Part shown: positions 5,109 through 24,051 of the stretch, in pieces | Numbering within the stretch: position 1 is the first letter of the stretch | How the letters are laid out: every line of letters starts with the position of its first letter | NCBI GenBank assembly: GCA_035648555.1 | Contig: DASRLF010000020.1 | Span: 2,606 to 66,605 of the forward strand | Source: Pseudolabrys sp. | Lineage (GTDB): Bacteria; Pseudomonadota; Alphaproteobacteria; Rhizobiales; Xanthobacteraceae | Length of the DNA: 64,000 bases | Direction: 5' to 3' | Position numbers and translations under genes: made by a program | The notes under the pieces: model-generated | The model's input: only the letters and a program-made list of their open reading frames with translations | Databases searched by the model: none | What the model was told of the DNA's origin: nothing

Positions 5109-6212
5109 CTAACCCCAGACTTCCTTTGCGACCTCAACGATCATCTTCAGCTTGGCCCATTGCTCGTCCTCCGCCAAGACATTGCCCTCCTCGGTCGAGG
5201 CGAAGCCGCATTGCGGCGACAAACAAAGCTGATCAAGCGAGATATATTTCGCCGCCTCCTCGATGCGGCGCTTGAGATCGTCCTTGTTCTCCAGCCGGCC
5301 GGTCTTGGTGGTGACGAGCCCGAGCACGACATGGCGGTCCTTCGGCACCAGTTTAAGCGGCTCGAAGCCACCGGCACGCGCGCTGTCGTATTCCATGAAA
5401 TAGCCGTGCACCTTGATGCGGTTGAACAGGATCTCCTGCTCGGCCTCATAGCCGCCCGAGCCCATGAAGGTCGATTTATAATTGCCGCGGCACAGGTGCA
5501 TCGTAATGCGCATGTCGGCGGGAATATCCGACATAGCGGTGTTGATCAAATCGCCGTAGAGTTCGCCCAGTTTTTCCGGATCGTCGCCGCGCGCTTCCAT
5601 CTGCGCGCGGTATTTTTCATCGCACAACATGGCGATGAACACCTCGTCGAGTTGCAGATAACGGCAGCCGGCATCGGCGAAGGCGCGCACGGCTTTTTTA
5701 TACGCTTGGCCGAGATCGTCGAAGAACGCGTCGAGCTTGGGATAAATATTTCGGTCGATCGGTGTCGGCACCGGCCTGCCATAAGCCGCCGATGGCGATG
5801 GAATCGTAATCTTAGGCGTGCGCTGGGTGTGCGCGGCGACAAACTTGAAATGCTCGATCATCGGATGGCCGGAGAACCCGACTTTTCCCGCGACCTTGAG
5901 GCCTTCATTGCGCGTGGTGACTGCGGCGAAGGCGATGCCGGTGTCCATCACGTGCTTTTCGATGCCGTCGAGGCCCCAGAGAAAATCGAGGTGCCACCAG
6001 GACCGGCGGAATTCGCCGTCGGTGATCGATTGCAGACCGGCGTCTTCCTGGCGCTTGATGACGCGCTCGATCTCGCGATCTTCGACCGCCTTCAGTGCGC
6101 CGGTATCGATCTCACCTTTGGCGCGCTGCTCGCGCGCCTTTTTCAGCGCGGCTGGTCGCAGCAGGCTGCCGACATGGTCGGCGCGGAATGGCGGCTTTGT
6201 TCGCATCGTCAT
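5109..6212 (-). CDS. Cobalamin-independent methionine synthase II family protein (MetE catalytic barrel only, YxjH-like); array copy 5 of 5 in transcription order
   Basis: DHVGSLLR, TDGEFRR, Zn ligands H-L-C (MHLCRGN), E (YFMEYD) and C (SPQCGF); 367 aa, about half of full MetE. Confidence 0.9.
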   Translation of the reverse strand: MTMRTKPPFRADHVGSLLRPAALKKAREQRAKGEIDTGALKAVEDREIERVIKRQEDAGLQSITDGEFRRSWWHLDFLWGLDGIEKHVMDTGIAFAAVTTRNEGLKVAGKVGFSGHPMIEHFKFVAAHTQRTPKITIPSPSAAYGRPVPTPIDRNIYPKLDAFFDDLGQAYKKAVRAFADAGCRYLQLDEVFIAMLCDEKYRAQMEARGDDPEKLGELYGDLINTAMSDIPADMRITMHLCRGNYKSTFMGSGGYEAEQEILFNRIKVHGYFMEYDSARAGGFEPLKLVPKDRHVVLGLVTTKTGRLENKDDLKRRIEEAAKYISLDQLCLSPQCGFASTEEGNVLAEDEQWAKLKMIVEVAKEVWG

Positions 6213-7321
6213 CGGCTACCCCATACTTCTTGCGCGATTTCCACGATCATCTTGAGCTTCGCCCATTGCTCGTCCTCGGCCAGGATATTCCCTTCCTCGG
6301 TCGAGGCGAAGCCGCATTGCGGCGAAAGGCAAAGTTGGTCAAGCGGGACAAATTTCGTCGCCTGATCGATGCGGCGCTTGATGGCGTCCTTGGATTCCAG
6401 CCGGCCGCTTTTGCTGGTGACCAAACCAAGCACTACGGTCTTACCCTTGGGTACGAAACGCAGCGGCTCGAAACCGCCGGCGCGATCCGAGTCGTATTCC
6501 ATGAAATAGCCGTGCACGTTGATCGCATTGAACAGAATCTCCGCGACCGGCTCGTAGCCGCCAGAGGCCACGAAGGTAGACTGGAAATTTCCGCGGCACA
6601 GATGCATGGCGATGGCCATGTCGGCGGGAATGTCGGAGATCGCGGCGTTGATCAGCCGGGCATAGGCCGCGGGCAATTGGGCCGGATCCTCGCCGCGTTC
6701 GCTGACCTGCGCCCGCAGTTTGGGATCGCAAAGATAAGCGAGATTGACTTCATCGAATTGCAGATAGCGGCAGCCGGCATCGGCAAAACCACGCACCGCC
6801 TGAGCGTAGGTCCGGCCCAGATCAGAATAAAAGTCCTCCATGTCTGGATAAATCGCGCCCGGAATGGCGTCGCGGCCGTAGCGGAAATGCAACGACGACG
6901 GCGACGGGATCGTCATTTTCGGCGAAACGCGCGTGTGCGCCTTGACGAACTTGAAATGCTCCAGCATCGGATGACCGGAAAACGTGCCGAGCTCGCCGGT
7001 CACGCGCAGCATCATCGGCTTGGGGTTATTGCCCGCGAACTTGATCTTGCGTTCGCCGAGATAGGCTTCGACGCCATCAAGCGCGCCCAGAAAATCGTAA
7101 TTCCAGAAGGCGCGGCGAAATTCGCCGTCAGTGACGGCTTTTAGCCCAATGTCTTCTTGCTTCTTAATGACGGTGGCGATCTCGCGATCCTCGATCGCCT
7201 TGAGCTGATCGGCGGTGAGCTCGCCTTTTTCGCGCTGGGCGCGGGCTTCTTTCAGCGGCGCGGTCCGCAACAGGCTGCCGACATGATCGGCGCGGAAGGG
7301 AGGACTAAGACGTAATGTCAT
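6209..7321 (-). CDS. Cobalamin-independent methionine synthase II family protein; array copy 4 of 5
   Basis: Same motifs: MHLCRGNFQST, YFMEYD, SPQCGFASTEEGN; 370 aa. Confidence 0.9.
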   Translation of the reverse strand: MTLRLSPPFRADHVGSLLRTAPLKEARAQREKGELTADQLKAIEDREIATVIKKQEDIGLKAVTDGEFRRAFWNYDFLGALDGVEAYLGERKIKFAGNNPKPMMLRVTGELGTFSGHPMLEHFKFVKAHTRVSPKMTIPSPSSLHFRYGRDAIPGAIYPDMEDFYSDLGRTYAQAVRGFADAGCRYLQFDEVNLAYLCDPKLRAQVSERGEDPAQLPAAYARLINAAISDIPADMAIAMHLCRGNFQSTFVASGGYEPVAEILFNAINVHGYFMEYDSDRAGGFEPLRFVPKGKTVVLGLVTSKSGRLESKDAIKRRIDQATKFVPLDQLCLSPQCGFASTEEGNILAEDEQWAKLKMIVEIAQEVWGSR

Positions 7322-7330
7322 GCGCGGAGC

Positions 7331-8437
7331 TTAGCGGCCCCACACTTCTTCCGCCAACTCGACGATCATGCGCAGCTTGGCCCACTGCTCGTCCTCGGCC
7401 AGCACGTTGCCTTCCTCGGTCGAGGCGAAGCCGCACTGCGGCGAAAGGCACAGCTGCTCGAGCGCGACATATTTGGTGGCCTCCTCGATGCGGCGCTTGA
7501 TGTCGTCGCGCGGCTCCAGCCGGCCGCTTTTCGAGGTGACCAGGCCGAGGACCAGTTGCTTCTTGCCCTTGGGGAAAAAGCGCAGCGGCTCGAAGCCGCC
7601 GGCGCGGTCGCTGTCGTATTCCAGGAAATAGCCGTCGAAATTGGTGTTGCCGAGCAGATGCTCGGCGACGAATTCGTAGCCGCCCTGCGCGATCCAGGTG
7701 GAGCGGAAATTGCCGCGGCAGGAATGCATGGTGATCGCCATGTCGGCGGGCTTGCCGGCGAGCGCTTCATTGGTGACGCGCGCGTAGATCGCCGGCAGCG
7801 TGTCGGGGTCATCGCCGCGCGCCTTCGACTGCGCGCGCTCGTTCGGATCGCAGATCATTGACCAGGCGGTGTCGTCGAGCTGCAGGTAGCGGCAGCCGGC
7901 GTCGTAGAAGGCGCGGATCGCCTTGCGCCAGGCGGCGGCGACGTCGGCGAAGAAGGCGTCGTAGTCGGGATAGGCCTGCTTGCTCACCATCGCCCGGCCC
8001 TGCCGGAAATGGAACGTCGACGGCGCCGGGATCGTCATCTTCGGCGTGACGTTGCAGTGCGCCTTCAAGAACTTGAAATGCTCGATCATCGGATGGCCGG
8101 TGAAATCGACCTTGCCGGAGATCTTGATTGCCTCGGCTTTCGTCTCGACACCGTGAAATTTGATCGGCGGCGCGCTGATCATCTCGACGCCCTGCAGCCC
8201 CTTGAAGAAATCGAAGTGCCACCAGGAGCGGCGGAATTCGCCGTCGGTGGCGAGCTTCAGGCCCACCGCCGCCTGCTTCTTGATGATTTTTTCGATCTCG
8301 CGGTCTTCGACGTCTTTCAGCGCGCCGGCGTCGATCTCGCCCTTGGAAAATTTGGCGCGTGCGTCTTTCAGCGGAGCGGTGCGCAACAGGCTGCCGACCA
8401 TGTCGGCGCGGAACGGCGGCGCGGTGCGGGCGCTCAT
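7331..8437 (-). CDS. Cobalamin-independent methionine synthase II family protein; array copy 3 of 5
   Basis: Start ATG 8437 (MSARTAPPF) overlaps the upstream stop (ATGA); MHSCRGN, YFLEYD, SPQCGF. Confidence 0.9.
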   Translation of the reverse strand: MSARTAPPFRADMVGSLLRTAPLKDARAKFSKGEIDAGALKDVEDREIEKIIKKQAAVGLKLATDGEFRRSWWHFDFFKGLQGVEMISAPPIKFHGVETKAEAIKISGKVDFTGHPMIEHFKFLKAHCNVTPKMTIPAPSTFHFRQGRAMVSKQAYPDYDAFFADVAAAWRKAIRAFYDAGCRYLQLDDTAWSMICDPNERAQSKARGDDPDTLPAIYARVTNEALAGKPADMAITMHSCRGNFRSTWIAQGGYEFVAEHLLGNTNFDGYFLEYDSDRAGGFEPLRFFPKGKKQLVLGLVTSKSGRLEPRDDIKRRIEEATKYVALEQLCLSPQCGFASTEEGNVLAEDEQWAKLRMIVELAEEVWGR

Positions 8438-9540
8438 TTGCCCCACACCTCTTCTGCCAGTTCCACGATCATGCGCAGCTTGGCCCACTGCTCGTCCTCG
8501 GCCAGCACGTTGCCTTCCTCGGTCGAGGCGAAGCCGCATTGCGGCGACAAGCACAGCTGATCGAGCGCGACATATTTGCTGGCCTCGTCGATGCGGCGCT
8601 TGATGTCATCGCGCGGCTCCAACCGGCCCGACTTCGAAGTGACCAGGCCGAGCACCAGCTGCTTCTTGCCCTTGGGAAAATGACGCAGCGGCTCGAAGCC
8701 GCCGGCACGCTCGCTGTCGTATTCCAGGAAATAGCCGTCGAAATTGGTGTTGCCGAGCAGATGTTCGGCGACGAATTCATAGCCGCCCTGCGCGATCCAG
8801 GTGGAGCGGAAATTGCCGCGGCAGGAATGCATCGTAATCGCCATGTCGGCGGGCTTGCCTTCGAGCGCGGCATTGGTGACGCGTGCATAGATCGCCGGCA
8901 GCGTGTCGGGATTATCGCCGCGCGCCTTCGATTGCTCGCGCTCCTTGGGGTCGCAGATCATCGCCCAGGCGGTGTCGTCGAGCTGCAGGTAGCGGCAGCC
9001 GGCATCGTAGAAGGCGCGGATCGCCTTGCGCCAGGTGGCGCCGACATCCGCGAAGAAGGCGTCGTAGTCGGGGTAGGCCTCCTTGCTCACCATCGCCCGG
9101 CCCTGCCGGAAATGGAACGTGCTCGGCGCCGGAATGGTCATCTTGGGCGTGACGTTGCAATGCGCCTTCAGAAATTTGAAATGCTCGAGATGCGGATGGC
9201 CGGCGAAGTCGACCTTGCCGGTGATCTTGACCGCCTCGGCTTTTGTTTCGACGCCGTGGAATTTGATCGGCGGCGCACTGATCAGCTCGACGCCCTTGAG
9301 TCCCTTGAAGAAATCGAAATGCCACCAGGAACGGCGAAATTCGCCGTCGGTAGCGAGCTTCAGGCCCACCTCCGCCTGCTTCTTGACGATCTTCTCGATC
9401 TCGCGGTCTTCGACTTCGCGCAGCGCGTCGGCGGGAATTGCGCCTTTGGCAAACTTGGCGCGCGCCTCTTTCAGCGCAGCGGGGCGCAGCAGGCTGCCGA
9501 CGTGATCGGCGCGGAACGGCGCGGTCGTCCGCGCGCTCAT
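8434..9540 (-). CDS. Cobalamin-independent methionine synthase II family protein; array copy 2 of 5
   Basis: Start ATG 9540 (MSARTTAPF), ATGA overlap; about 90% identical to copy 3 by hand count. Confidence 0.9.
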   Translation of the reverse strand: MSARTTAPFRADHVGSLLRPAALKEARAKFAKGAIPADALREVEDREIEKIVKKQAEVGLKLATDGEFRRSWWHFDFFKGLKGVELISAPPIKFHGVETKAEAVKITGKVDFAGHPHLEHFKFLKAHCNVTPKMTIPAPSTFHFRQGRAMVSKEAYPDYDAFFADVGATWRKAIRAFYDAGCRYLQLDDTAWAMICDPKEREQSKARGDNPDTLPAIYARVTNAALEGKPADMAITMHSCRGNFRSTWIAQGGYEFVAEHLLGNTNFDGYFLEYDSERAGGFEPLRHFPKGKKQLVLGLVTSKSGRLEPRDDIKRRIDEASKYVALDQLCLSPQCGFASTEEGNVLAEDEQWAKLRMIVELAEEVWGK

Positions 9541-10646
9541 TTGCCCCAGACCTCTTGCGAAAGATCCACGATCATCTTCAGCTTGGCCCATTGCTCGTCC
9601 TCGGCCAGCACGTTGCCCTCTTCGGTCGAGGCAAAGCCGCATTGCGGCGAAAGACAAAGCTGATCGAGCGCGACATATTTAGTCGCCTCCTCGATGCGCT
9701 TCTTGATGTCTTCGCGCGGCTCCAGCCGGCCGGATTTCGAGGTGACGAGACCCAGCACAACGATCTTGTTGCCTTTCGGGACGAAGCGCAGCGGCTCGAA
9801 GCCGCCGGCGCGGTCGCTGTCATATTCCAGGAAGTAGCCATCGTAATTGCACTTGGCGAGCAGGCTCTCGGCCACCGGCTCGTAGCCGCCGGACGAAATA
9901 AAGGTGGAGCGGAAATTGCCCCGGCAAACATGGGTCGTGATGGTCATATCGGCGGGCTTGGCCTCCAGCGCCTTGTTGATGCAGCGGGTATAGCTATCCT
10001 GCAGATGATCGACATCGAGGCCGCGCTCGCGCGCCTTCTTCAACTCGGCCTCCGAGCAGAGATAGGCCCAGGCGGTGTCATCCCATTGCAGGTAGCGGCA
10101 GCCAGCGGCGTAGAACGCCTTAATCGCCGACTGATAGGCCATGGCGAGATCGTCGAAGATGGCGTCTCGGCTCGGATAGAACTCTTTGCTCACCGCGCCG
10201 GGTTCGAGCCGGAAATGCATCACGCTCGGCGCCGGAATGGTCATCTTCGGCATGACCTTGGTGTGCGCCTTCAGGAACCTGAAGTGCTCCAGCATCGGAT
10301 GATTGGAGAAGCCGATCTTGCCTTTGACGCGGATGCTGAGCGGCTTGGTCTGCACGCCCTGAAACTGGATGCCGTGGTCGAGCTCATAAATCTCGACGCC
10401 ATCGAGCATGCCGAAGAAATCAAAATGCCACCATGAGCGGCGGAATTCGCCGTCGGTGGCGAGCTTGAGCCCGATGTCTTCCTGTTTCTTGATGATCTTC
10501 TCGATCTCGCGATCCTCGACCTCTTTGAGCTGGGCCGGGCTAATTGCGCTCTTCTCGCGTTGCGCGCGCGCCTGCTTGACCGGCGCGGTGCGCAGGATGC
10601 TGCCGACATGGTCGGCGCGGAAAGGCGGCTTGGTTCGCTGCGTCAT
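9537..10646 (-). CDS. Cobalamin-independent methionine synthase II family protein; array copy 1 of 5
   Basis: THVCRGNFRST, YFLEYD, SPQCGF; GGAGG RBS upstream of ATG 10646. Confidence 0.9.
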   Translation of the reverse strand: MTQRTKPPFRADHVGSILRTAPVKQARAQREKSAISPAQLKEVEDREIEKIIKKQEDIGLKLATDGEFRRSWWHFDFFGMLDGVEIYELDHGIQFQGVQTKPLSIRVKGKIGFSNHPMLEHFRFLKAHTKVMPKMTIPAPSVMHFRLEPGAVSKEFYPSRDAIFDDLAMAYQSAIKAFYAAGCRYLQWDDTAWAYLCSEAELKKARERGLDVDHLQDSYTRCINKALEAKPADMTITTHVCRGNFRSTFISSGGYEPVAESLLAKCNYDGYFLEYDSDRAGGFEPLRFVPKGNKIVVLGLVTSKSGRLEPREDIKKRIEEATKYVALDQLCLSPQCGFASTEEGNVLAEDEQWAKLKMIVDLSQEVWGK

Positions 10647-10690
10647 CGTTTCCTCCGCAATTCGTCCATCGGCGTTGCCGGCCGTGGGTT

Positions 10691-11545
10691 TTATTTAATG
10701 TGAGCCATAGCACGGCCCGGCTGCGGCGTGCCATGCGCCGCTTCGCATGCGTAGCGTGCAGTTTCGATGGTGCCCCCGAATGAAAAATAATGCGGCGCGG
10801 CATCGCCCAGATCGCCAGCGGCCACAAGCGCCTCAAGGATGCGGTCCGGCCCGACATGGCCAATCAGGCCGGCGGCCGCGCCCGACATCAGGCCGCGCAG
10901 CGAAGCGGCAACGCCGCAACGCTGGGCGTAACGGAACAGCGCCGGCACGCTGGTCGGTCCAGCCATACCGACTTTCACCGGCTGATTGATGCCGCAGGTG
11001 CGCAACTGCCGGAGCCAGGCGAGGATACGCTCGGGCGAAAAGGAAAATTGGCTGACGATATGTACGCCAAGTCCTTGCGCGGTGGCGGCGGCGATCTTTT
11101 CATCAAGCGCCGCTTCAAGCCGGCCGGCCGGAATGCGCGGGTGGCCTTCCGGATAGGCGCCGATGCCGATCTCTTCAATGCCGGCTTCGCGCAATTTGCC
11201 TTTCTGAATCACCGCCAGCGCGTCTGGATAAGGCCCCGCGGCGTCGACATCGCCACCGACCACGAGAATACGGCGGATGTCCGCTTCGCCACGCAGGCTG
11301 GCCAGCAGGTTTTGCAAGTCGGCGGCCGCGCCAATTCGGCGCGCCGCGATATGAACGACCGGTTCCAAGCCGGACTTACGCAGCAAAGCCGCCGCCGCGA
11401 TCAGCTCAGGCGGCTCGATCGTCGGCACCGCCGAAAAATAGACCGGCGTTCCGCCCGGCAGCAGGTCCGCCAACGCCGCAATCTCGGCCGCGCCGGGACG
11501 CGTGGCCTCAAGCGAAAACCGCCGCGCGAAGGCGTCCGGGCTCAT
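10691..11545 (-). CDS. metF: Methylenetetrahydrofolate reductase-like flavoprotein (atypical alphaproteobacterial MetF family)
   Basis: FSLEAT, PVVHIAARR, LVVGGD, GAYPEGHP, VSQFSF, GMAGP, RCGV, YFSFGG match the MTHFR barrel motifs in order. Confidence 0.8.
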   Translation of the reverse strand: MSPDAFARRFSLEATRPGAAEIAALADLLPGGTPVYFSAVPTIEPPELIAAAALLRKSGLEPVVHIAARRIGAAADLQNLLASLRGEADIRRILVVGGDVDAAGPYPDALAVIQKGKLREAGIEEIGIGAYPEGHPRIPAGRLEAALDEKIAAATAQGLGVHIVSQFSFSPERILAWLRQLRTCGINQPVKVGMAGPTSVPALFRYAQRCGVAASLRGLMSGAAAGLIGHVGPDRILEALVAAGDLGDAAPHYFSFGGTIETARYACEAAHGTPQPGRAMAHIK

Positions 11546-11549
11546 TGCG

Positions 11550-12959
11550 CTATTCGCGCCGGTGCGAGATCACGAAAGATTCGTCGTAGAACCAAAGACC
11601 GCCCTGCTGCTGCAGCACGTCGCGCGTCGCCTCGATGTAGCGGCGGTCGCTGTTGACGTCGGACAGGCGGTCGTCCTCGATTTGCGCCACGTAGATCGCG
11701 GCGTTCCAGGCCGCCAGCAGCGTCGAGGTGCCGATCGATGAGGAAATTTCCGATGGCAGCGTGTGCATCTCGTAGCGGAACAGCGAGCGCTGGTCGGAAT
11801 AGGCGTTGAAATTGAGATCGCGGCCGGCAGGCCCCAGTTCGTGTTTCACCGCCTTGAGTAGATCGTGGCGGCTATGCGCGAAGGGATTATCCTCGGGCCA
11901 AACTTTGTGGATGATTTCCATGCCGGGGTCACGCCCGTAGGAATGGATCGCGATCATACGGCCGCCGGGCCCGAGCGCGCGAGCGAGCGGCGCCAGCACG
12001 CGCTTGGCCTTGAAGTCGATCGAGGCGCGCGCGCGATAAGGCTGCGACGCGATCACCAGATCGTAGTCGGCAACCGTGGCGCCCGGTTTCGGGATGACCT
12101 GATCGAGCAGAAACTTGTGATCGTTGCGGTAAAGCACCAGCACCACCGGCCGCTCGTAGACCGGATTGCCGCTCTTCGGCGACACGCGCGCTTTCCAGTT
12201 TTCACCAAGGAACGGCTCAAGCGCGGTGATCTGCTGCTCGAACGAATGCGCGGTGTCGCCCTCGAGCGCAACTTCCTTCCAGACCATGCTGGAGGCCGCC
12301 GTCACCGACTTGACGGACAGCCACGGCGCTTCCGCGTAAGCGAGGTTGGTAAGAACAATGACGCTCGAAGGATGCTCAATGAAACGGTCCGCCATTTTCT
12401 GCAGCGTGAGGCGGACATCTTCGAGGCTGATTTCCTTGGCCACGATGTAGAACGGCATGGTCGGGTAACGGTCGTGCATCGAGCGCATGACGCGCGCCAG
12501 CACGGTGCCGTCGCCAACGCCGGCGTCGAACACACGCACCGCCGGCGGTCGCGGGTGGATGCTGGCAAGTTCGAGACTGACGCGGTTGGCGACTTCCCAC
12601 TTCTCGCTGCAGGTATTCACGAACAGCAGATATTTCTGCCTGTTGTCGAAGAATCGGAAATTGCGTTGCGGGTCGTCGCCCGCTTGACCGGAGGCGACCG
12701 GCGGGGCCGGCGGCTTGACCATCGGCAAGACCGCGGGCGGCGCCGCATCGAACAATACGCGGCGGCGAGCCGGCGCTGCGTCGGCGTTGCGCGCCATGAA
12801 GCTACGGATGCGCTCGAGCGTGTCAGTGGTAATGCGGCCGCCATTGCGCAGGCGGTTGGCGAGCTTGCCGTCATTGACCGCGCGGCGGCCGAAAGTGGAT
12901 TCGGCCAGACCGCGCTGGCGGCAGAATTCGCCGATCTCCTGGAGGATTTGATCGTTCAT
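11550..12959 (-). CDS. Fusion of an N-terminal small HTH-like DNA-binding domain and a class I SAM-dependent methyltransferase-like domain
   Basis: Residues 1-56 (GLAESTFGRRAVNDGKLANRLRNGG) are Cro/XRE-like, followed by a Pro/Ala linker and the SAM-binding motif I VFDAGVGDG. Confidence 0.65.
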   Translation of the reverse strand: MNDQILQEIGEFCRQRGLAESTFGRRAVNDGKLANRLRNGGRITTDTLERIRSFMARNADAAPARRRVLFDAAPPAVLPMVKPPAPPVASGQAGDDPQRNFRFFDNRQKYLLFVNTCSEKWEVANRVSLELASIHPRPPAVRVFDAGVGDGTVLARVMRSMHDRYPTMPFYIVAKEISLEDVRLTLQKMADRFIEHPSSVIVLTNLAYAEAPWLSVKSVTAASSMVWKEVALEGDTAHSFEQQITALEPFLGENWKARVSPKSGNPVYERPVVLVLYRNDHKFLLDQVIPKPGATVADYDLVIASQPYRARASIDFKAKRVLAPLARALGPGGRMIAIHSYGRDPGMEIIHKVWPEDNPFAHSRHDLLKAVKHELGPAGRDLNFNAYSDQRSLFRYEMHTLPSEISSSIGTSTLLAAWNAAIYVAQIEDDRLSDVNSDRRYIEATRDVLQQQGGLWFYDESFVISHRRE

Positions 12960-13041
12960 GGGTGCGTTTCCTGGCTGGCTCTCATGGCCGGCTCAGCGCC
13001 TAGGGAACCAAGCTTACTCAAATCCGTCAATCACAAAAGAG

Positions 13042-13180
13042 GCTATATAAAAGGTGGGCAAAGTGGGTGGGCTCAGCCCAACGCTATATTTATATGAATA
13101 TATTGTTCTTTGAAAAGGTGTTTCCGGCTTTCAGTGGGCTACTACCCACTTACTGCGTAAGTGTGGGCAATAAGTGGGCC
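13042..13180. promoter_or_regulatory. AT-rich upstream region of the met-like operon with repeated GTGGG boxes and three palindromes
   Basis: GTGGG at 13054, 13063, 13067, 13134, 13163, 13174. TGGGCT-C-AGCCCA 13068-13080; AGTGGG-N6-CCCACT 13133-13150; CACTTAC-N3-GTAAGTG 13147-13163. Confidence 0.55.
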
Positions 13181-13202
13181 GCGCGGTCCGGCGATAACGT
13201 CT

Positions 13203-13817: not shown

Positions 13818-14524
13818 TAGTGTTTATCCGTGTCTAGCGGCGTCGCCTCGCGCCCGCGCAACACGATGTTCCAGCGGAAGCAGAGCGCCCAGTCGGGAAT
13901 GGTGTTCTCCAGATCGAAGTTGGAGACCATGCGCTGGCGCGCTTTCTCGTCGGTCACCGAATTGAAGATCGGATCGAACGGAAACAGATAATCGCCGGGG
14001 AAATACATCTGGGTGACGAGGCGCGTGAGGAACGACTGGCCGAAGACCGAGAAATGGATGTGGTTCGGCCGCCAAGCATTGTGATGATTGCCCCACGGAT
14101 AGGCGCCGGGCTTCACGGTGATGAATTTGTAGTAGCCGTTCATGTCCGTGATGGTGCGGCCCGCGCCGGTGAAATTCGGATCGAGCGGCGCCGGATGCTG
14201 ATCGACGATGTGCACGTAGCGGCCGCAGGCATTAGCTTGCCAGATTTCCACCAGCGTCTCGGGGATCGGTCGCTTGTCCTCGTCCAGCACCTGGCCGTGC
14301 ACGATGATGCGCTCGCCCAAGGGCTCGCCTTTGTGCTGCTTGGTGAGGTCGTTGTCGGTGTCCTGGATCGCGTCGTGACCGAAGGCCGGACCTGAGAGCT
14401 CGGACAGCGTGTGCGGTACAATCACCAAAGGCTTGGACGGCGAGCGCTTCACCGTGCTGCGGTATTCCGGCGACAGATGCTTGGGAAAGGCGTCGAGGCT
14501 TTCCTTGGGATAGATCAGCGACAT
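13817..14524 (-). CDS. pcaH: Protocatechuate 3,4-dioxygenase beta subunit
   Basis: EIWQANACGRYVH, KPGAYPWGNHHNAWRPNHIHFS (Fe ligands Tyr/His). Confidence 0.97.
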   Translation of the reverse strand: MSLIYPKESLDAFPKHLSPEYRSTVKRSPSKPLVIVPHTLSELSGPAFGHDAIQDTDNDLTKQHKGEPLGERIIVHGQVLDEDKRPIPETLVEIWQANACGRYVHIVDQHPAPLDPNFTGAGRTITDMNGYYKFITVKPGAYPWGNHHNAWRPNHIHFSVFGQSFLTRLVTQMYFPGDYLFPFDPIFNSVTDEKARQRMVSNFDLENTIPDWALCFRWNIVLRGREATPLDTDKH

Positions 14525-14541
14525 TATCGTCGTCCTTGCTT

Positions 14542-15752
<1,211 letters not shown>

Positions 15753-15756
<4 letters not shown>

Positions 15757-16526
15757 GCCGCCTCGCCGTGGGCGCGGTTGGTGCGCGCCTGCAATTCACG
15801 CAACACTTCGAGCTCTTTCGCGGTCGGCGCCGGCGTCTCGGCGACCTTCGAGGCAAAACGTATTTTCCAGCCAGTGTTCTCCTGGATCTGCTCGCGTGTG
15901 ACGCCGGGATGAATCGAGACGACGGTCATTTCCTTGGTTTGCGGATCGGGCTCAAGCATCGCCAGGTCGGTGATCAACTTGGTCGGGCCTTTGGTTTTGA
16001 CGCCCAGTTTGGCCCGCGAGTCGCCGCCGGTGACGTGGCCGATCGACGTCACGAAATCGAGTCTGTCGACAAAGCCGCGCTTGCCCTGCGCCATGATGAT
16101 GAAAATCTCGCCGCACGAGGTGGCGATCTCCGGCGCGCCGCCGCCGCCGGGCAGCCGCACCTTCGGCTTGTCGTAGGGACCGACCACGGTGGTGTTGAGA
16201 TTGGCGTATTTGTCGATCTGCGCGCCACCGAGGAAGCCGATCTTGATGCGGCCGCCTTGCAGCCAGTAGCGGAACATTTCCGGCACCGACACGGTGGTGA
16301 CCGCAGTCTCGCACAATTCGCCGTCGCCGATCGACAGCGGCAGGATGTTGGGCTTGGTGGCGAGCGTGCCGGATTCGTAAATCAGCGTGATACCGGGCGC
16401 ATGCGTGAGGCGCGCGAGATTGCAGGCCGCCGAGGGCTGGCCGATGCCGACAAAGCAAACGTCGTCGTTCTTCAAAGCGCGCGCCGCAGCGATCGTCATC
16501 ATCTCGTTGGGCTTGTAGTCGGCCAT
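15753..16526 (-). CDS. pcaJ: 3-oxoadipate CoA-transferase subunit B (GctB/CatJ type)
   Basis: FVGIG, LIYESG, GGAQIDKYANLN, RLPGGGGA. Confidence 0.88.
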
Positions 16527-16531
16527 GCTTC

Positions 16532-17395
16532 TTACTCCGCCGCCGAACTAAGTTTGCGCGCGTGCACGGCAAAAGCCTCGGGGCCTTTCGCCAGCACGTT
16601 TTCCTTCATCCATGAAAGGAACGAGTCGCGCTCGCGCGAGACCGCATCCCATTGCTTGTAGAAACTGTTGTTGCGCGGGTAATAGCCCTGCGCATACGAC
16701 GGGAACGCGCCGCCCGGTACCTCGACCACATGGCCGACGGTCCAGTGCGGCAGCACCACCGCATTGAGGCTGCGATCCGGCGGCAGCTCGTCGACGATCT
16801 CCTCCACCGTCACCACCGAGCGCTTCGACGCCAACACCGCTTCCTTCTGCACGCCGAGCACGCCCTCGATCATGACGTTACCGGCTTTGTCGGCGCGTTG
16901 CGCATGGATCATCGCGACGTCTGGCCGGTGCGCCGGGATCGCGGCCAGTTCCTCGCCGGTGAAAGGACAGGTCACCCGCTTGATCTTGGAATTCACTTTC
17001 GGCAGGTCGCCGCCGATATAGCCGCGGAAAATCGCGCAAGGCAGCCCGGCAGCGCCCGCTTCATAGGCGTTGGCCATGGCGGCGTGCGAATGCTCCTCTA
17101 TTTCCAATTTATGCGGCCAGCCGTTTTCTACTGCGTCGCGAAAACGATACAGCGAGCCGACGCCCGGATTGCCGCCCCATGAGAACACCAGTTTCTTGAC
17201 GCACCCCATGCCGATGAGCTGGTCGTAAACCAGGTCTGGCGTCATGCGGATCAGCGTCAGGCCCTTGCGGCCCTGGCGGATGATCTCGTGGCAGGCGGCA
17301 TGGGGAATGAGATGGGTGAAGCCCTCCAGCGCCATCGTGTCGCCGTCGCGAACGGCATCTTTAATGGCTTCGGCGAGAGACGAAATACGCGCCAT
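16532..17395 (-). CDS. pcaI: 3-oxoadipate CoA-transferase subunit A (GctA/CatI type)
   Basis: ALEGFTHLIP, RMTPDLVYDQLIG, WGGNPGVGSL. Start ATG 17395. Confidence 0.88.
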   Translation of the reverse strand: MARISSLAEAIKDAVRDGDTMALEGFTHLIPHAACHEIIRQGRKGLTLIRMTPDLVYDQLIGMGCVKKLVFSWGGNPGVGSLYRFRDAVENGWPHKLEIEEHSHAAMANAYEAGAAGLPCAIFRGYIGGDLPKVNSKIKRVTCPFTGEELAAIPAHRPDVAMIHAQRADKAGNVMIEGVLGVQKEAVLASKRSVVTVEEIVDELPPDRSLNAVVLPHWTVGHVVEVPGGAFPSYAQGYYPRNNSFYKQWDAVSRERDSFLSWMKENVLAKGPEAFAVHARKLSSAAE

Positions 17396-17467
17396 GCGAG
17401 GCTGCTTCCCGGTTGCGGCACCGTATTTACGGCTGGTCACAGGCAGGGTCAAATGGCGAAATAGGCG

Positions 17468-17487
17468 TAAGTTTGAGCTCCAACGAA
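17468..17487. promoter_or_regulatory. Putative MarR operator, degenerate copy (TAAGTTTGAGCTCCAACGAA)
   Basis: 13/20 match to the 22321 palindrome; abuts the DUF3237 start codon in the pcaI/DUF3237 divergent gap. Confidence 0.5.
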
Positions 17488-17948
17488 TGGCAGCCATGCT
17501 GGGCAAAGAACCGATCTTCACAATTCACGCCGACTTGGCGGACATCATGAATTTCGGCCGCACGCCCTATGGCGAGCGCCGCGTTATCGGCATCCTCGGC
17601 GGCAGCGTGCGCGGACCCAAGTTGCAAGGGCGTATCCTGCCGGGCGGCTTCGACTGGCAAATCATACGCAATGACGGCGCGGCGGATATCAGCGCGCGCT
17701 ACACCATCGAGACGGATGCCGGCGCGCGCATCCTGGTGTCGAGCGACGGCTTGCGGCATGGTCCGCCCGACGTGATGGCGCGGCTGGCGCGGGGCGACAG
17801 TGTCGACCCCTCGCACTATTATTTCCGCACGGTGATGCGGTTTGAGACTGCCGATCCGGCGGTGGACTGGCTCAACCGGATTCTCGGATTGACGCGCGGA
17901 CAGCGCGAGGCCAACGCCGTGCGTCTCGATGTCTATGAGGTCAAATAA
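17487..17948 (+). CDS. DUF3237 family beta-barrel protein
   Basis: TPYGERRVI.I.GG.V.GPKLQG..LPGGFDWQ, ARYTIETD, YYFRTVMRFET pattern. Confidence 0.85.
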   Translation: MAAMLGKEPIFTIHADLADIMNFGRTPYGERRVIGILGGSVRGPKLQGRILPGGFDWQIIRNDGAADISARYTIETDAGARILVSSDGLRHGPPDVMARLARGDSVDPSHYYFRTVMRFETADPAVDWLNRILGLTRGQREANAVRLDVYEVK

Positions 17949-18742
17949 TGGCGGATCGGCTGGACGTAAAACTGCCTGCCTCGCTCGCCGCCGAGCGACA
18001 GGGCGCGGTGGCGATATTGCGCCTGGCGCGGCCCACCAAGCGCAACGCATTCAACGACGAGACCATTCTCGGCATCGAGACATTCTTCACGTCGCTGCCG
18101 GACGGCGTCGGCGCGGTGCTGCTGCACGGCGAGGGCGAGCATTTTTCCGCCGGGCTCGATTTGAGCGAGCTTAAGGAGCGCGACGTCGCGCAGGGCATCG
18201 CGCATTCCGGACTGTGGCATCGCGCCTTCGAGAAAATCCAGTTCGGCAAGGTGCCGGTGGTCGCCGTGCTGCATGGCGCGGTGGTCGGTGGCGGGCTGGA
18301 ATTGGCCGCCAGCGCGCACGTGCGCGTCGCCGAACGCTCGGCTTATTACGCGCTGCCGGAAGGCAGCCGCGGCATCTATGTCGGCGGCGGCGGCTCGGTG
18401 CGGTTGCCGCGGTTGATCGGCATCGCGCGCATGATGGACATGATGCTCACCGGCCGCACTTATTCCGCCGAGGAAGGTCACGCCATGGGGCTAACGACCT
18501 ATCTGGTCGAGCCGGGCCAGGGTTTTGCCAAAGGTCTCGAGCTGGCGACGGCAATCGCCGGCAATGCGCCGCTCACGAACTTTGCGGTGATGCAGGCGCT
18601 GCCGCGCATCGCCGAGATGGATCCGGCCAGCGGCTACGAAGTCGAGGCGCTGATGTCGGCGATCGCGCAGGCCGATCCCGAGGCAAAAGCGCGGCTGAAG
18701 GAATTTCTGGCAAAGCGCGCGCCAAAGGTGACGCGGCCTTGA
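17948..18742 (+). CDS. Enoyl-CoA hydratase/crotonase family (hydroxycinnamoyl-CoA pathway context)
   Basis: HFSAGLDL, GAVVGGGLELA, LPEGSRGIYVGGG; adjacent to fcs. Confidence 0.88.
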   Translation: MADRLDVKLPASLAAERQGAVAILRLARPTKRNAFNDETILGIETFFTSLPDGVGAVLLHGEGEHFSAGLDLSELKERDVAQGIAHSGLWHRAFEKIQFGKVPVVAVLHGAVVGGGLELAASAHVRVAERSAYYALPEGSRGIYVGGGGSVRLPRLIGIARMMDMMLTGRTYSAEEGHAMGLTTYLVEPGQGFAKGLELATAIAGNAPLTNFAVMQALPRIAEMDPASGYEVEALMSAIAQADPEAKARLKEFLAKRAPKVTRP

Positions 18743-20586
18743 GCGCACCGCTACGCCCCGTGCGCCTCGGCGCGCTCGATCCGGTGTTGGAGCGGCGCGG
18801 CGACGGCGTAATTCATATCCGCGCCAAGCAGGTGCTACCGCCTTATCACGCCAAGCTGAGCGAGCCGTTGCAGCATTGGGCCAACGCCGCGCCCGAGCGC
18901 GTGTTCCTGGCGCAGCGCGGCGCGCAAGACCGCTGGCGCACCCTGTCGTATGCGGAAGTTCTGGCGCGCGTGAAGCGCATCGGCGCTTCATTATTGCGCC
19001 GCGGGCTGTCGGCCGAGCGGCCGATCGCAATCATTTCCGGCAACGACATCGAGCACGCGCTACTGGCGCTGGCGGCGATGTATGTCGGCATTCCTTACGC
19101 GCCGATTTCGCCGGCTTATTCACTGCTATCGAGCGACTTCGGTAAATTGCGCGCCATCATCGATTTGCTGACGCCCGGCCTGGTGTTTGCCAATGACGGC
19201 GGGCCGTTCGCGCGCGCGCTTTATCAAACGGTGCCGGACGATATCGAACTGGTGGTGACGCGCAATCCGCTGGGCGACCGCCCCACCGCGCTGTTCGCCG
19301 ATCTCACCGGCGCCGACGACGACGCGGGCGTTGCCGCCGCGCACGCGAAGGTCACGCCCGACACGATCGCAAAATTTTTATTCACCTCTGGCTCGACCGG
19401 ATCGCCCAAGGCAGTCGTCAACACCCAGCGCATGCTGTGCGCTAACCAGGCGATGCTGGCGGCCGGTTTTTGTTTCGTCGCCGACCAGCCGCCGGTGGTG
19501 GTGGACTGGCTGCCGTGGAGCCATACCTTCGGCAGCAACCACAACTTCAATATGGTGCTGGTAAACGGCGGCTCGCTCTACATCGACGACGGCAATCCGA
19601 CGCCGCCGGGCGTGCCGAAGACCGTGCGTAATCTGCGCGAGATCGCGCCGACCATCTATTTCAACGTGCCGAAAGGTTACGAGGCGCTGGTGCCGCATTT
19701 CCGCGCCGACAGACAATTGGCGCAGAATTTCTTCAGCCGGCTGAAGGTGCTGTTTTACGCCGGCGCCGGGCTCAACCAGACCACCTGGGACGATCTCACC
19801 AAGCTCGCGATCGAGACCACCGGGGAGCGCATTATTTTTCTGTCCTCGCTCGGCTCGACCGAAACCGCGCCGCTGGCGCTGGCCTGCACCTGGGATTTCG
19901 GCCGCCCCGGCAATATCGGGCTGCCGGCGCCGGGCGTCGAACTCAAACTGGTGCCGAACGAAGGCAAGCTGGAGGCGCGCCTGCGCGGGCCGCACATCAC
20001 GCCGGGCTATTGGCGGCAGGATCAACTCACGCGTGAGGCGTTCGATGAGGGAGGCTTTTATAAATTGGGCGACGCGCTGAAATTCGTCGACCCCAACGAT
20101 GCCGGCAAGGGTCTGCTGTTCGACGGCCGCATTGCCGAGGACTTCAAGCTTTCGACCGGCACCTGGACCAGTGTCGGTCCCTTGCGCGCCCGCTTCATCG
20201 ATCACTTTGCGCCCTTGGTGCGGGATGTCGTGTTCGCCGGGCCCGACCGTGACGATATCGTGGCGCTGGTGATCCCCGATATCGAAGCCTGCCGCAAATT
20301 CGCCGGCCTTACGGCTGATGCGGCACCCGCCGCTGTGCTGGACGAGCCGCGCCTGCGCGCGAAATTCACCGAACTGCTCAACCAACTTGCCGTCACGAGC
20401 CGCGGCACCTCGACCCGGGTGACGCGCGCCATTCTGATGGCGGAGCCGCCATCGATGGACAAAGGTGAAATGACCGACAAGGGCTCGATCAACCAGCGCG
20501 CGGTCCTCAAAAACCGCGCCGCGCTGGTGGACGAGCTTTATGCCACGCCGCTATCCTCGCAGGTGATCGCCACCGACAGCGCCTAA
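18739..20586 (+). CDS. fcs: Feruloyl/hydroxycinnamoyl-CoA synthetase
   Basis: LFTSGSTGSPK, DWLPWSHTFGSNHN, YFNVPKGYE, LGSTETAP, EMTDKGSINQRAVL. TTG start overlaps the ech stop. Confidence 0.88.
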   Translation: MSAPLRPVRLGALDPVLERRGDGVIHIRAKQVLPPYHAKLSEPLQHWANAAPERVFLAQRGAQDRWRTLSYAEVLARVKRIGASLLRRGLSAERPIAIISGNDIEHALLALAAMYVGIPYAPISPAYSLLSSDFGKLRAIIDLLTPGLVFANDGGPFARALYQTVPDDIELVVTRNPLGDRPTALFADLTGADDDAGVAAAHAKVTPDTIAKFLFTSGSTGSPKAVVNTQRMLCANQAMLAAGFCFVADQPPVVVDWLPWSHTFGSNHNFNMVLVNGGSLYIDDGNPTPPGVPKTVRNLREIAPTIYFNVPKGYEALVPHFRADRQLAQNFFSRLKVLFYAGAGLNQTTWDDLTKLAIETTGERIIFLSSLGSTETAPLALACTWDFGRPGNIGLPAPGVELKLVPNEGKLEARLRGPHITPGYWRQDQLTREAFDEGGFYKLGDALKFVDPNDAGKGLLFDGRIAEDFKLSTGTWTSVGPLRARFIDHFAPLVRDVVFAGPDRDDIVALVIPDIEACRKFAGLTADAAPAAVLDEPRLRAKFTELLNQLAVTSRGTSTRVTRAILMAEPPSMDKGEMTDKGSINQRAVLKNRAALVDELYATPLSSQVIATDSA

Positions 20587-20598
20587 GGACACGAGATC

Positions 20599-21360
20599 AT
20601 GGACATCAAGGGACAGGCGGCCATCGTCACCGGCGGCGCATCGGGATTAGGCGCGGCCACTGCGCGTGCGCTCGCCACCGCCGGCGCCAAGGTGGCGGTG
20701 TTCGATCTCAACGAGAAAGGCGCGGCCGACGTCGCCGCCGACATCAAGGGCATCGCGGTGGCCTGCGACGTCGCCAGCGCGCAGAGCGCCAAGGCCGCGA
20801 TCGAGACCGCCAGCGCCGCGCATGGGCCGGCGCGCATTCTGATCAATTGCGCCGGCGTCGGGCCGGCCAAGCGCATCGTCGGCCGCGACGGGCCGATGCC
20901 GCTGGAAGATTACGAGAAGGTCATCCGCGTCAACCTGATCGGCACCTTCAACATGATGCGGCTCGCCGCCGCCGCCATGGCGCCGCTCGACCTGTTGCCG
21001 GAGGGCGAGCGCGGCGTGATCGTTTCGACCGCCTCGGTCGCGGCCTTCGAAGGCCAGATCGGGCAATCCGCTTATTCGTCATCCAAGGGCGGCGTCGCCG
21101 CCTTGACGCTGCCGGCGGCGCGCGAGTTCGCGTCATTCGGCGTGCGCGTGCTGGCGATCGCGCCCGGAATCTTCGGCACGCCGATGCTGCGCGCGTTGTC
21201 GCAGGAGGTACAGGACTCGCTTGGCGCCGCGGTGCCGTTCCCCAAACGCCTAGGCGAGCCGAGCGAATTCGCCGCGCTGGCGATGCACTGCATCAACAAT
21301 ACCTATCTCAACGGCGAGGTCATCCGCCTCGACGGCGCGATACGCCTGGCGCCGCGTTAA
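20599..21360 (+). CDS. SDR family 3-hydroxyacyl-CoA dehydrogenase (type II, HSD17B10-like)
   Basis: [33 protein letters not shown]. Confidence 0.9.
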
Positions 21361-21776
21361 TGATCACAAACAGCCGCAAGGTTCGTATCGAATGGGGCGA
21401 CTGCGACCCCGCCGGCATTATTTTCTATCCGCGCTATTTCGAAATCTTCGACGCCTCGACCTCGGCGTTGTTCGAGCGCGCGATGGGCATGACCAAAATT
21501 CAATTGCTCAAGACCTTCAACTTCGCCGGCTATCCGCTGGCGAAAACGCGCGCGCGGTTCCTCAAGCCCACGCGTTTCGGCGACGACGTGACGGTGGATA
21601 CGTCCGTCAAATTCGGCCGCGCCAGTTTCGAGATCGAACACCGGCTCAGCCTGAACGGCGAGACTTGCGTCGAATGTTCGGAGACCCGCGTCTGGGTGGT
21701 GCGCGATCCGGCAACCGGCGGCATCAAGTCGCACGCGGTTCCGGCGGCGGTGCTGGCGAAGTTCAAAGCGCCCTAG
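21360..21776 (+). CDS. Acyl-CoA thioesterase (4-hydroxybenzoyl-CoA thioesterase family)
   Basis: IEWGDCDPAGIIFYPRYF motif; ATG overlaps the SDR stop (TAATG). Confidence 0.9.
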   Translation: MITNSRKVRIEWGDCDPAGIIFYPRYFEIFDASTSALFERAMGMTKIQLLKTFNFAGYPLAKTRARFLKPTRFGDDVTVDTSVKFGRASFEIEHRLSLNGETCVECSETRVWVVRDPATGGIKSHAVPAAVLAKFKAP

Positions 21777-22312: not shown

Positions 22313-22320
22313 GCCGGTAC

Positions 22321-22340
22321 ATAGTTTGATATCAAACTAT
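22321..22340. promoter_or_regulatory. Putative MarR operator, perfect 20-bp palindrome ATAGTTTGATATCAAACTAT
   Basis: Exact self-reverse-complement between divergent marR and dctP. Confidence 0.75.
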
Positions 22341-22422
22341 AACCTTTACAACGTCCACGACATGCGGCTGAATAATAAAAAAGTTGGCAAGCAAACCAAC
22401 ACCCAACCGAGGGAGGAAGTCC

Positions 22423-23448: not shown

Positions 23449-23473
23449 ACCGGCGCGCCAACGATATTGGACT

Positions 23474-23502
23474 ATCGGCGGCGGGGATCCCCCGCCGCCG
23501 AT
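23474..23502 (+). terminator. GC-rich 13-bp hairpin between dctP and dctQ (attenuator or mRNA-stabilising stem, no U tract)
   Basis: ATCGGCGGCGGGG-ATC-CCCCGCCGCCGAT. Confidence 0.55.
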
Positions 23503-23531
23503 TCTACTGACTGTCGGAGTCTGGTGCGGCC

Positions 23532-24041: not shown

Positions 24042-24051
24042 AAGAGACGCG

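Follow-up and report, generated by a model that had tools for sequence, protein, structure and literature searches.

We analyzed a 64,000-nucleotide (nt) stretch of DNA from Pseudolabrys sp. (hereafter the window; contig DASRLF010000020.1 of assembly GCA_035648555.1, positions 2,606 to 66,605), with emphasis on a tandem array of five genes, M1 to M5, that encode short MetE-like zinc (Zn) enzymes within an island of aromatic catabolism genes. The host assembly comprises 3.0 Mb in 71 contigs and is about 92% complete. The GC content of the window is ~63%, and its closest public relatives are metagenome-assembled genomes (MAGs) of Pseudolabrys (Xanthobacteraceae). A first-pass annotation of the window, made from the sequence alone, had described a side-chain module, pcaHG, a MetF-like gene, and five Zn-thiolate methyltransferase homologs at positions 5109 to 21776, and this gene content was confirmed. 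Its inventory had omitted an open reading frame (ORF) of 469 amino acids (aa), a 243-nt gap, and the end of the unit that encodes a MaoC-type hydratase, an acyl-CoA dehydrogenase (ACAD), and a CoA-transferase. Listed from high to low coordinates, the minus-strand genes and the gap that interrupts them are as follows (MTHFR, methylenetetrahydrofolate reductase; HTH, helix-turn-helix).

16532-17521, minus strand: pcaI, 3-oxoacid CoA-transferase subunit (Pfam CoA_trans)
15753-16526, minus strand: pcaJ, 3-oxoacid CoA-transferase subunit (Pfam CoA_trans)
14542-15756, minus strand: pcaF-like thiolase (Pfam Thiolase_N/C)
13817-14524, minus strand: pcaH, protocatechuate 3,4-dioxygenase (TIGR02422, 367 bits; cut-off, 296)
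13203-13817, minus strand: pcaG, protocatechuate 3,4-dioxygenase (TIGR02423, 249 bits; cut-off, 126)
12960-13202, no strand: intergenic region of 243 nt (sequence read directly)
11550-12959, minus strand: 469-aa ORF, HTH/methyltransferase-like, first gene of the unit (no Pfam/NCBIfam match)
10691-11545, minus strand: type 4 (S6MTHFR-like) MTHFR (1e-53 to PDB 7XG9)
9537-10646, minus strand: M5, short MetE-like Zn enzyme, paralog type I (NF005085, 596 bits)
8434-9540, minus strand: M4, short MetE-like Zn enzyme, paralog type II (NF005085, 586 bits)
7331-8437, minus strand: M3, short MetE-like Zn enzyme, paralog type II (NF005085, 585 bits)
6209-7321, minus strand: M2, short MetE-like Zn enzyme, paralog type IV (NF005085, 531 bits)
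5109-6212, minus strand: M1, short MetE-like Zn enzyme, paralog type III (NF005085, 511 bits)
4238-5101, minus strand: MaoC-type (R)-specific enoyl-CoA hydratase (Pfam MaoC_dehydratas and MFE-2_hydrat-2_N)
3069-4241, minus strand: ACAD (Pfam Acyl-CoA_dh N, M, and C domains)
1943-3067, minus strand: family III CoA-transferase, last gene of the unit (Pfam CoA_transf_3, 6e-100)

The genes for the pcaF-like thiolase and pcaIJ are kept upstream of pcaHG in relatives. At the other end, the ACAD is 80 to 91% identical in relatives with conserved synteny, and every NCBIfam match to the family III CoA-transferase fell below its cut-off. The array had been placed directly behind pcaG in the first-pass annotation. 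The genes do lie on the same strand, and no terminator-like hairpin was found in the gap downstream of pcaG, but the 243-nt gap and the 469-aa ORF intervene. From the 469-aa ORF to the CoA-transferase gene, spacers range from −4 to 44 nt: M5 begins 44 nt past the MTHFR gene, M4 has 4-nt start/stop overlaps with both M5 and M3 (the start of M3 being set by alignment to M5), and the MaoC gene begins 7 nt past M1. Given these short spacers, the 469-aa ORF through the CoA-transferase gene very probably constitute one transcription unit. The gap at 12960-13202 contains an AT-rich core (aacaatatattcatataaatatag) between about six GCCCAC/GTGGGC boxes, features that make a separate promoter for the unit likely. 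The boxes could represent an operator array for the HTH-bearing 469-aa protein.

M1 to M5 are 367 to 370 aa long, share 60 to 89% pairwise identity, and carry Meth_synt_2 as their sole Pfam domain. All five exceeded the 313-bit cut-off of NF005085 (PRK06520), to which they aligned over positions 2 to 368 of 368. The equivalog model for YxjG/YxjH (NF004875) scored them at 370 to 414 bits, below its cut-off of 576, and the model for true MetE (TIGR01371) at 26 to 41 bits versus a cut-off of 930; the Meth_synt_1 barrel is absent, and no GCV_T domain was detected in the array proteins. The family is large, with at least 8000 scored candidate homologs, all significant. With MetE (EC 2.1.1.14), the window proteins share Meth_synt_2, the His-Cys-Glu-Cys Zn site, and the homocysteine-binding Ser, Glu, and Asp; however, they are half its size, lack the N-terminal barrel, and occur as five tandem paralogs in an aromatic catabolic island. 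They share length and fold family with YxjG/YxjH (NF004875; 1YPX) but belong to the sister model NF005085. M5 matched PDB 1YPX, a structural genomics entry from Listeria, over its full length (6.5e-130). We know of no function assigned to 1YPX and of no methyl donor assigned to YxjG/YxjH-type proteins. Firmicute YxjG/YxjH genes are, we presume, controlled by S-box riboswitches. Unlike these, the window genes stand in a setting of aromatic catabolism, and no cobalamin or S-adenosylmethionine (SAM) riboswitch was found near the MetE-like genes in Rfam searches at gathering thresholds covering the window and 11 loci.

Across 75 family sequences, the Zn ligands H239, C241, E274, and C336 (M5 numbering) do not vary; the His and both Cys ligands align, contexts included, to the THMC and PDCG motifs of MetE, and the Glu ligand (E274, in LEYD) was placed by position in a segment where alignments disagree. 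Also invariant in the 75 sequences, and aligned to MetE, are the homocysteine residues V14-G15-S16, E67, and D189. Arg69, Arg70, Arg146, and Arg242 are invariant too and are candidates for binding a carboxylate. The roles of the homocysteine and folate residues, including the T. maritima Ser411 loop, Glu462, and Asp577, are those described by Pejchal and Ludwig (PMC539065). On the folate side, Lys104, Arg15, and Lys18, which the N-terminal barrel contributes in MetE, are absent; the DMV motif of MetE is replaced by W/F-W-H/N; and the place of Trp539, which stacks against the pterin, is taken in alignments by Phe, Tyr, or Gly. Around Glu583, the family carries an insertion, and alignments disagree there (Ser198, Glu199, or Lys). 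Because the homocysteine-binding residues are kept, the thiol substrate is very probably homocysteine. The array is not the housekeeping methionine synthase, since MetH is encoded on contig C31 with an ordinary MetF-like match beside it.

The same genome encodes five further, distant single-barrel proteins of the MetE superfamily (343 to 401 aa, 22 to 26% identical to the array; C17:7604-8665, C42:25762-26811, C8:2934-4109, C11:5532-6773, and C5:40196-41410), giving ten in total in a 3-Mb genome.

In a tree of 75 sequences from 41 loci, the family split into four deep clades, and each clade spans many genera. M5 belongs to type I, M3 and M4 to type II, M2 to type IV, and M1 to type III. M3 and M4 (~89% identical) are a recent duplicate pair, and the type I clade also contains the single-copy genes of Bradyrhizobium/Rhodopseudomonas-type genomes. 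The order I-II-IV-III is shared by the three arrays compared: that of the window, that of a related contig from a metagenome, and one from a different genus. Ratios of nonsynonymous to synonymous substitution rates (dN/dS) were 0.09 to 0.26 for every array copy (0.09 to 0.16 for M1; 0.11 to 0.13 for M2). The copies are ancient paralogs under purifying selection, not the product of recent amplification, and the pattern of clades and dN/dS fits a set of enzymes with differing, conserved putative specificities.

The first-pass annotation had reported that no VanA- or LigM-type demethylase occurs in the 64 kb. Profile and tblastn searches bore this out and extended it to the whole 3.0-Mb assembly, in which VanA_C (PF19112) had no match, GCV_T had a single weak match (a putative YgfZ-like protein by size and score), the true LigM of a same-genus genome found no match as a tblastn query, and no cytochrome P450 was present. 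Nor does the genome encode an extra paralog of the homocysteine or pterin domain of MetH; its one weak B12-domain match, on contig C51, is a putative mutase. We then considered 16 other genomes with the same cluster, all Pseudolabrys-like and carrying pcaIJFHG, the 469-aa gene, the MTHFR gene, the MetE-like array, and the CoA module. LigM was absent genome-wide in 14 of these genomes, VanA_C in 10, and both in 9, including a 4.1-Mb single-chromosome MAG. Because the hole recurs across these related genomes, it is not explained by assembly incompleteness. The pathway hole proposed earlier thus holds for methoxylated substrates but not for p-coumarate: PobA is encoded elsewhere in the genome (539 bits, just above the cut-off), so the route from p-coumarate through 4-hydroxybenzoate to protocatechuate needs no demethylase, and the hole is confined to the methoxylated branch. 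Across 60 genomes of the family, a complementary distribution of the array and VanA/LigM was also considered and rejected, as many genomes carry both.

We propose, with a probability of roughly 0.4, that M1 to M5 are homocysteine S-methyltransferases whose methyl donors would be the methoxy groups of lignin-derived aromatic acids. Vanillate, syringate, and 3-O-methylgallate are candidate donors. The Zn-activated homocysteine thiolate would attack the ether methyl, yielding methionine and a catechol- or gallate-type substrate of PcaHG or of the protocatechuate-cleaving LigAB found in relatives, and different paralogs would take different methoxy-aromatics. The array would be coexpressed with the HTH/methyltransferase-like protein (a possible regulator sensing SAM or S-adenosylhomocysteine [SAH]), the type 4 MTHFR, and the CoA module, whose MaoC-ACAD-CoA-transferase set may feed phenylpropanoate side chains into the same pathway. 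A wider claim, possible but put forward only tentatively, is that PRK06520-type proteins form a fourth class of aryl O-demethylase that would be cofactor-free, oxygen-independent, and based on Zn and homocysteine, with four types for different methoxy-aromatics. In that scheme, the 469-aa protein would act with the type 4 MTHFR and with MetK and AhcY, which are encoded elsewhere in the genome, to bring the methyl group back into the one-carbon (C1) pool and to regenerate homocysteine. An anabolic version, in which methoxy groups provide a B12-independent supply of methionine, is easier to accept and would not fill the hole for growth. The first-pass annotation had suggested a transfer of methoxy-derived methyl groups to homocysteine, directly or via folate; as a whole, that interpretation is partly supported.

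The MTHFR gene (10691-11545) bears on whether folate takes part. The earlier description of this MetF-like gene as the kind that accompanies tetrahydrofolate (THF)-dependent O-demethylases proved correct: its product matched S6MTHFR (PDB 7XG9) at 1e-53 versus 4e-7 or weaker for ordinary MTHFRs, and type 4 MTHFRs of this kind oxidize methyl-THF and pair with THF-dependent demethylases (Yu et al., PMC11868366). At the signature positions, Leu48, the NADH-blocking residue of S6MTHFR, gives way to Val, a bulky residue rather than Gly; Arg78 is retained; and Ser stands in place of Pro268. No THF-dependent demethylase partner (LigM, DesA, CmuAB, or Dmt) was found in this genome. A type 4 MTHFR gene lies directly upstream of the array in 21 related loci, only 4 of which contain ligM, and its dN/dS of 0.08 to 0.26 in three LigM-free genomes indicates purifying selection. 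Selection has therefore kept this gene where LigM is missing, which argues for a function independent of LigM. No other feature of the unit hints as strongly as the type 4 MTHFR at an involvement of methyl-THF.

That hint leads to an explanation that we consider unlikely but the most serious competitor, in which the array enzymes are cobalamin-independent methionine synthases acting as a sink for the C1 pool. They would use methyl-THF (possibly the monoglutamate) derived from LigM or, through methylene-THF, from VanAB formaldehyde, so that THF is recycled and C1 captured, and the type 4 MTHFR would balance methyl- and methylene-THF. The NCBI name of the family, methyltetrahydropteroyltriglutamate-homocysteine methyltransferase, agrees with this role, as do the MTHFR gene immediately upstream in the 21 loci, purU near single copies, and ligM or vanAB-like genes adjacent in several lineages. 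So do a retained aromatic residue where MetE has its pterin-stacking Trp and an acidic residue close to the Glu583 position, although the N-terminal barrel is missing and the DMV motif is lost. According to Price et al. (PMC7857596), core synthases without folate-binding domains use other donors. Furthermore, the 9 of 16 genomes without LigM and VanA have no aromatic source of methyl-THF, yet the MTHFR gene and the array are under purifying selection. Four conserved paralog types are hard to explain by one common donor, and the genome already has MetH and an ordinary MetF-like match, with no cobalamin or SAM riboswitch found. If this explanation were nevertheless true, the family would still gain a physiological role, and type 4 MTHFRs would be seen to work without a known THF-dependent demethylase.

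The 469-aa protein, which would contribute to methyl return under the wider claim, combines an N-terminal helical HTH-like domain, a Pro/Ala linker, and a methyltransferase-like domain with the motif VFDAGVGDG. Pfam and NCBIfam scans gave no family. An AlphaFold2 model built from a 15-sequence alignment had a mean predicted local distance difference test (pLDDT) score of 54, and a Foldseek search of the PDB with this model returned nothing at E ≤ 0.001, the only matches being weak and SAM-methyltransferase-like. Homologs adjoin arrays in Pseudolabrys-type loci, and homologs with 61 to 65% identity lie directly after ahcY and metK in Bradyrhizobium/Rhodopseudomonas-type loci (L057, L058, L062, L063, L066 to L069, and L072 in our survey). 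Given the position beside metK-ahcY, the protein may function in the methyl cycle, possibly as a regulator that senses SAM or SAH.

To see the array in its wider setting, we surveyed its genomic context. The gene was present in 46 of 61 sampled genomes of the family Xanthobacteraceae, at 1 to 13 copies. A search of genome contigs for related loci gave close relatives only (65 to 89% identity), and a phylum-level search widened the reach. The synteny sample held 118 distinct loci with up to 10 kb of flank per side, in which marker proteins were scored by tblastn; 49 arrays, defined as two or more tandem copies, were surveyed. Dioxygenase genes occurred within 10 kb of 33 of the 49 arrays (pcaHG in 18 and ligAB in 15), and of the 16 arrays without a dioxygenase, 7 lie on pieces shorter than 15 kb. 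The ligAB loci also hold LigC-like and LigI-like genes, and their LigA and LigB-type beta subunit scored above NCBIfam cut-offs. Because PcaHG and LigAB are nonhomologous, the array is linked to a metabolite, protocatechuate, and not to one inherited operon.

Single copies point in a similar direction in part of the sample. Type I single copies of Bradyrhizobium/Rhodopseudomonas-type genomes adjoin a Liv-type ATP-binding cassette (ABC) transporter whose binding protein matched PDB entries 4EY3, 4EYG, and 4EYK over the full length (2e-223; roughly 90% identical by eye). We take these entries to be complexes of an R. palustris protein that binds benzoate derivatives, the ligands being 4-hydroxybenzoate, vanillate, and protocatechuate. 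Within a few kb of the same copies are ahcY, metK, purU, and a gene homologous to the 469-aa ORF. Outside the family, ~10% of 301 sampled Pseudomonadota genomes had one copy. At three examined Pseudomonadota loci, genes for a vanA-like Rieske protein, a vanB-like reductase, and a GntR regulator are adjacent, and two of the three also have the same type of binding protein. Other contexts differ: one family member lies directly behind the alpha subunit of a Rieske ring-hydroxylating enzyme (L168, 8251-10585), and two Pseudomonadota loci have amino acid permease or choline sulfatase neighbors, the choline sulfatase gene at L163 (7048-10633) being accompanied by one for a LysE exporter. The contexts at L168 and L163 are hints that different family members may use different methyl donors.

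The most constant neighbor of the array is the CoA module: at least one of MaoC, ACAD, and CoA-transferase was found at 40 of 49 array loci, in many genera, and in the window the module is translationally coupled to the array. This constancy favors a different role, on balance unlikely, in which the enzymes belong functionally with the CoA module and catalyze some other Zn-thiolate-based transfer of alkyl or methyl groups, for example, one with CoA-thioester intermediates of phenylpropanoid side-chain oxidation, methylthio compounds, or a different small thiol as donor or acceptor. The MaoC, ACAD, and CoA-transferase genes would then be the real partners of the array, and the aromatic genes nearby would reflect no more than the broader pathway. 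Alkyl transferases of other kinds are known in the MetE superfamily, for example, epoxyalkane:coenzyme M transferase. The permease, choline sulfatase, and Rieske neighbors elsewhere suggest varied donors, and the five distant Meth_synt_2 homologs in the same genome would also be in keeping with such a role. However, the residues that bind the amino acid part of homocysteine are invariant, indicating homocysteine as the thiol; single copies without a CoA module keep the aromatic acid transporter, ligM, or vanAB neighbors; and beta-oxidation of phenylpropanoates is the ordinary explanation of the CoA module. Of the explanations considered, direct transfer from methoxy groups to homocysteine would explain the most, namely (i) the clusters free of known demethylases, (ii) the paralog types, (iii) the vanillate-type transporter, (iv) the demethylase and dioxygenase neighbors, and (v) the missing folate domain.

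Published omics data from Rhodopseudomonas palustris CGA009 bear on a probable single-copy ortholog. In that genome, RPA4015 is ahcY, RPA4024 is annotated as "methionine synthase, vitamin-B12 independent," and RPA4025 to RPA4029 encode an ABC transporter (PMC12366328); the assignment of RPA4024 is based on this gene order and annotation rather than on sequence. The RPA4024 protein and RPA4025 to RPA4029 were up 2.6- to 4.2-fold on lignin-derived aromatics under anaerobic conditions (PMC12366328, Data Sets S2 and S3). The anaerobic log2 fold changes of RPA4024 were 2.08 on p-coumarate, 1.74 on p-coumaryl alcohol plus acetate, 1.37 on coniferyl alcohol, 1.36 on sinapyl alcohol plus acetate, and 2.04 on kraft lignin plus acetate (PMC12366328, Data Set S3; substrate names are our expansions of its header abbreviations). 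The binding protein RPA4029 was raised in most aromatic conditions (PMC12366328). RPA4024, as the probable ortholog, thus responds to lignin-derived aromatics and not specifically to methoxylated ones. The main text of that study makes no mention of methionine synthase, and oxygen-independent demethylation puzzles its authors (PMC12366328).

Several considerations weigh against methoxy groups as the donors. An unactivated aryl methyl ether is a chemically difficult target for a thiolate; the O-demethylases known so far rely on Co(I), on oxygen (with iron-sulfur or heme partners), or on THF in combination with a dedicated fold. We found no enzymatic precedent for such an attack in the literature searched, which also contains no aromatic-donor test of any family member and no O-demethylase of this kind. 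For catabolism, each methoxy group would consume one homocysteine, and the sole evident recycling, by MetK and AhcY via SAM, has a cost in ATP. From the type 4 MTHFR, one would expect the methyl carrier to be methyl-THF rather than methionine. A VanA-like protein coexists with MetE-like genes in about half of the surveyed genomes, and LigM does so in several; ~20 single copies within the family, as well as members in other proteobacteria, stand in nonaromatic contexts. RPA4024 changes less than twofold in aerobic cultures, and its strongest induction is by p-coumarate, which has no methoxy group (PMC12366328). In the window itself, the island works for p-coumarate without any demethylase, through PobA.

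A further point of this kind is the position of ligM in relatives. The same-genus genome G048 (99% complete) carries a true ligM exactly between the MTHFR gene and the first MetE-like gene. At this locus (L036, G048:C4, 10670-13102; syntenic to window positions 10646-10691), ligM (467 aa) and a GntR regulator precede a single MetE-like gene, and the LigM protein matched the structures of LigM from strain SYK-6 (5X1I and 5TL4) at 7e-210. The ligM gene is likewise within the cluster at L090, L097, and L146. Since relatives have ligM at this junction, the hole may be a simple loss and the MTHFR a leftover partner. In another related genome, a second LigM-like stretch with in-frame TGA stops (G074:C3:346536-347502) lies beside an intact in-cluster ligM, from which it appears that ligM copies decay in this group.

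Taken to its conclusion, this argument would mean that there is no hole: only nonmethoxylated hydroxycinnamates would be degraded, via PobA; ligM would have been lost; the MTHFR gene would be a remnant; and the MetE-like genes would be paralogs of methionine synthase that inherited gene order retains in the island and that play no part in aromatic catabolism. PobA, the ligM genes at the same position in the same-genus genome and three related loci, the decayed LigM-like copy, the induction of RPA4024 by p-coumarate, and the ~20 single copies in unrelated contexts all accord with this account. We nonetheless judge it improbable. The array recurs with two unrelated dioxygenases, the benzoate-derivative transporter, and vanAB-like genes, which inheritance alone is unlikely to produce. 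Moreover, in genomes without LigM, purifying selection acts on the MTHFR gene and on every paralog, and MetH already supplies methionine.

The proposed transfer of methoxy methyl groups to homocysteine has partial counterparts in known systems. In sulfide- or thiol-dependent O-demethylation of the Holophaga foetida type, the methoxy methyl ends on sulfur, and the process is corrinoid dependent and confined to strict anaerobes. In contrast, the present cluster has no corrinoid components and carries genes for an oxygen-dependent ring-cleavage dioxygenase. The core synthases MesA to MesD reportedly belong to families of shorter proteins, with corrinoid proteins or MesX (DUF1852) as partners. Among the neighbors of the array, Pfam and NCBIfam scans detected neither a corrinoid protein nor DUF1852; no genome-wide search for DUF1852 was made. 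MesA to MesD are likewise single-barrel relatives of MetE and methylate homocysteine from a nonfolate donor (PMC7857596). The ligM-metF-ligH operon of Sphingobium lignivorans SYK-6 shares with the window a type 4 MTHFR beside the demethylation step from vanillate to protocatechuate (PMC11868366); unlike that operon, the window has no LigM, and five MetE-like genes follow the MTHFR gene instead.

The family itself is known and annotated. The literature searched assigns it no donor and no link to aromatics, and its sequence features and setting make it a good candidate O-demethylase. New here are the position of ligM in the same genus, the recurrence of the hole in nine additional genomes, the division of the paralogs into four ancient types, the association with two dioxygenase systems, the selection on MTHFR in the absence of LigM, and the connection to the R. 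palustris omics data. Most lignin-derived aromatics must be O-demethylated before they enter central ring-cleavage pathways, and this step is a recognized bottleneck in lignin valorization. If methoxy groups are indeed the donors, the array would represent a new catalytic solution, a single-subunit Zn enzyme that passes the methoxy methyl to homocysteine, and the turnover of lignin would be coupled directly to the supply of methionine and SAM in Xanthobacteraceae that abound in soil. Such an activity would also assign a function to a large family whose current annotation is methionine synthase, and it could bear on the reported oxygen-independent demethylation in Rhodopseudomonas palustris.

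On the other side of pcaI, the side-chain module and its transporter are arranged as follows (SDR, short-chain dehydrogenase/reductase; TRAP, tripartite ATP-independent periplasmic).

17948-18742, plus strand: crotonase-type enoyl-CoA hydratase (NF006013, 378 bits)
~18700-20586, plus strand: acyl-CoA synthetase, 628 aa (NF009232, 778 bits)
20599-21360, plus strand: SDR (Pfam adh_short)
21392-21776, plus strand: thioesterase (Pfam 4HBT)
21782-25362: MarR-type regulator (minus strand), then TarPQM-like TRAP transporter (plus strand; DctP protein versus PDB 7NQG, 2.9e-119)

The hydratase (Ech), acyl-CoA synthetase, SDR, and thioesterase are the enzyme set that we take to carry out the ferulate-to-vanillate route of Agrobacterium fabrum (Atu1415-1421). 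PDB entry 7NQG is, we believe, TarP of Rhodopseudomonas palustris, and on that assumption the TarP-like binding protein of the TRAP transporter would plausibly serve ferulate entry. Directly after the TRAP transporter genes, window positions 25414 to 29096 hold IorA-like and IorB-like genes for an indolepyruvate/arylpyruvate ferredoxin oxidoreductase. The IorA-like (alpha-type) gene scored under its equivalog cut-off, and the IorB-like (beta-family) gene scored 574 bits versus a cut-off of 348. Such a ferredoxin oxidoreductase pair is an unusual companion for an aerobic aromatic island.

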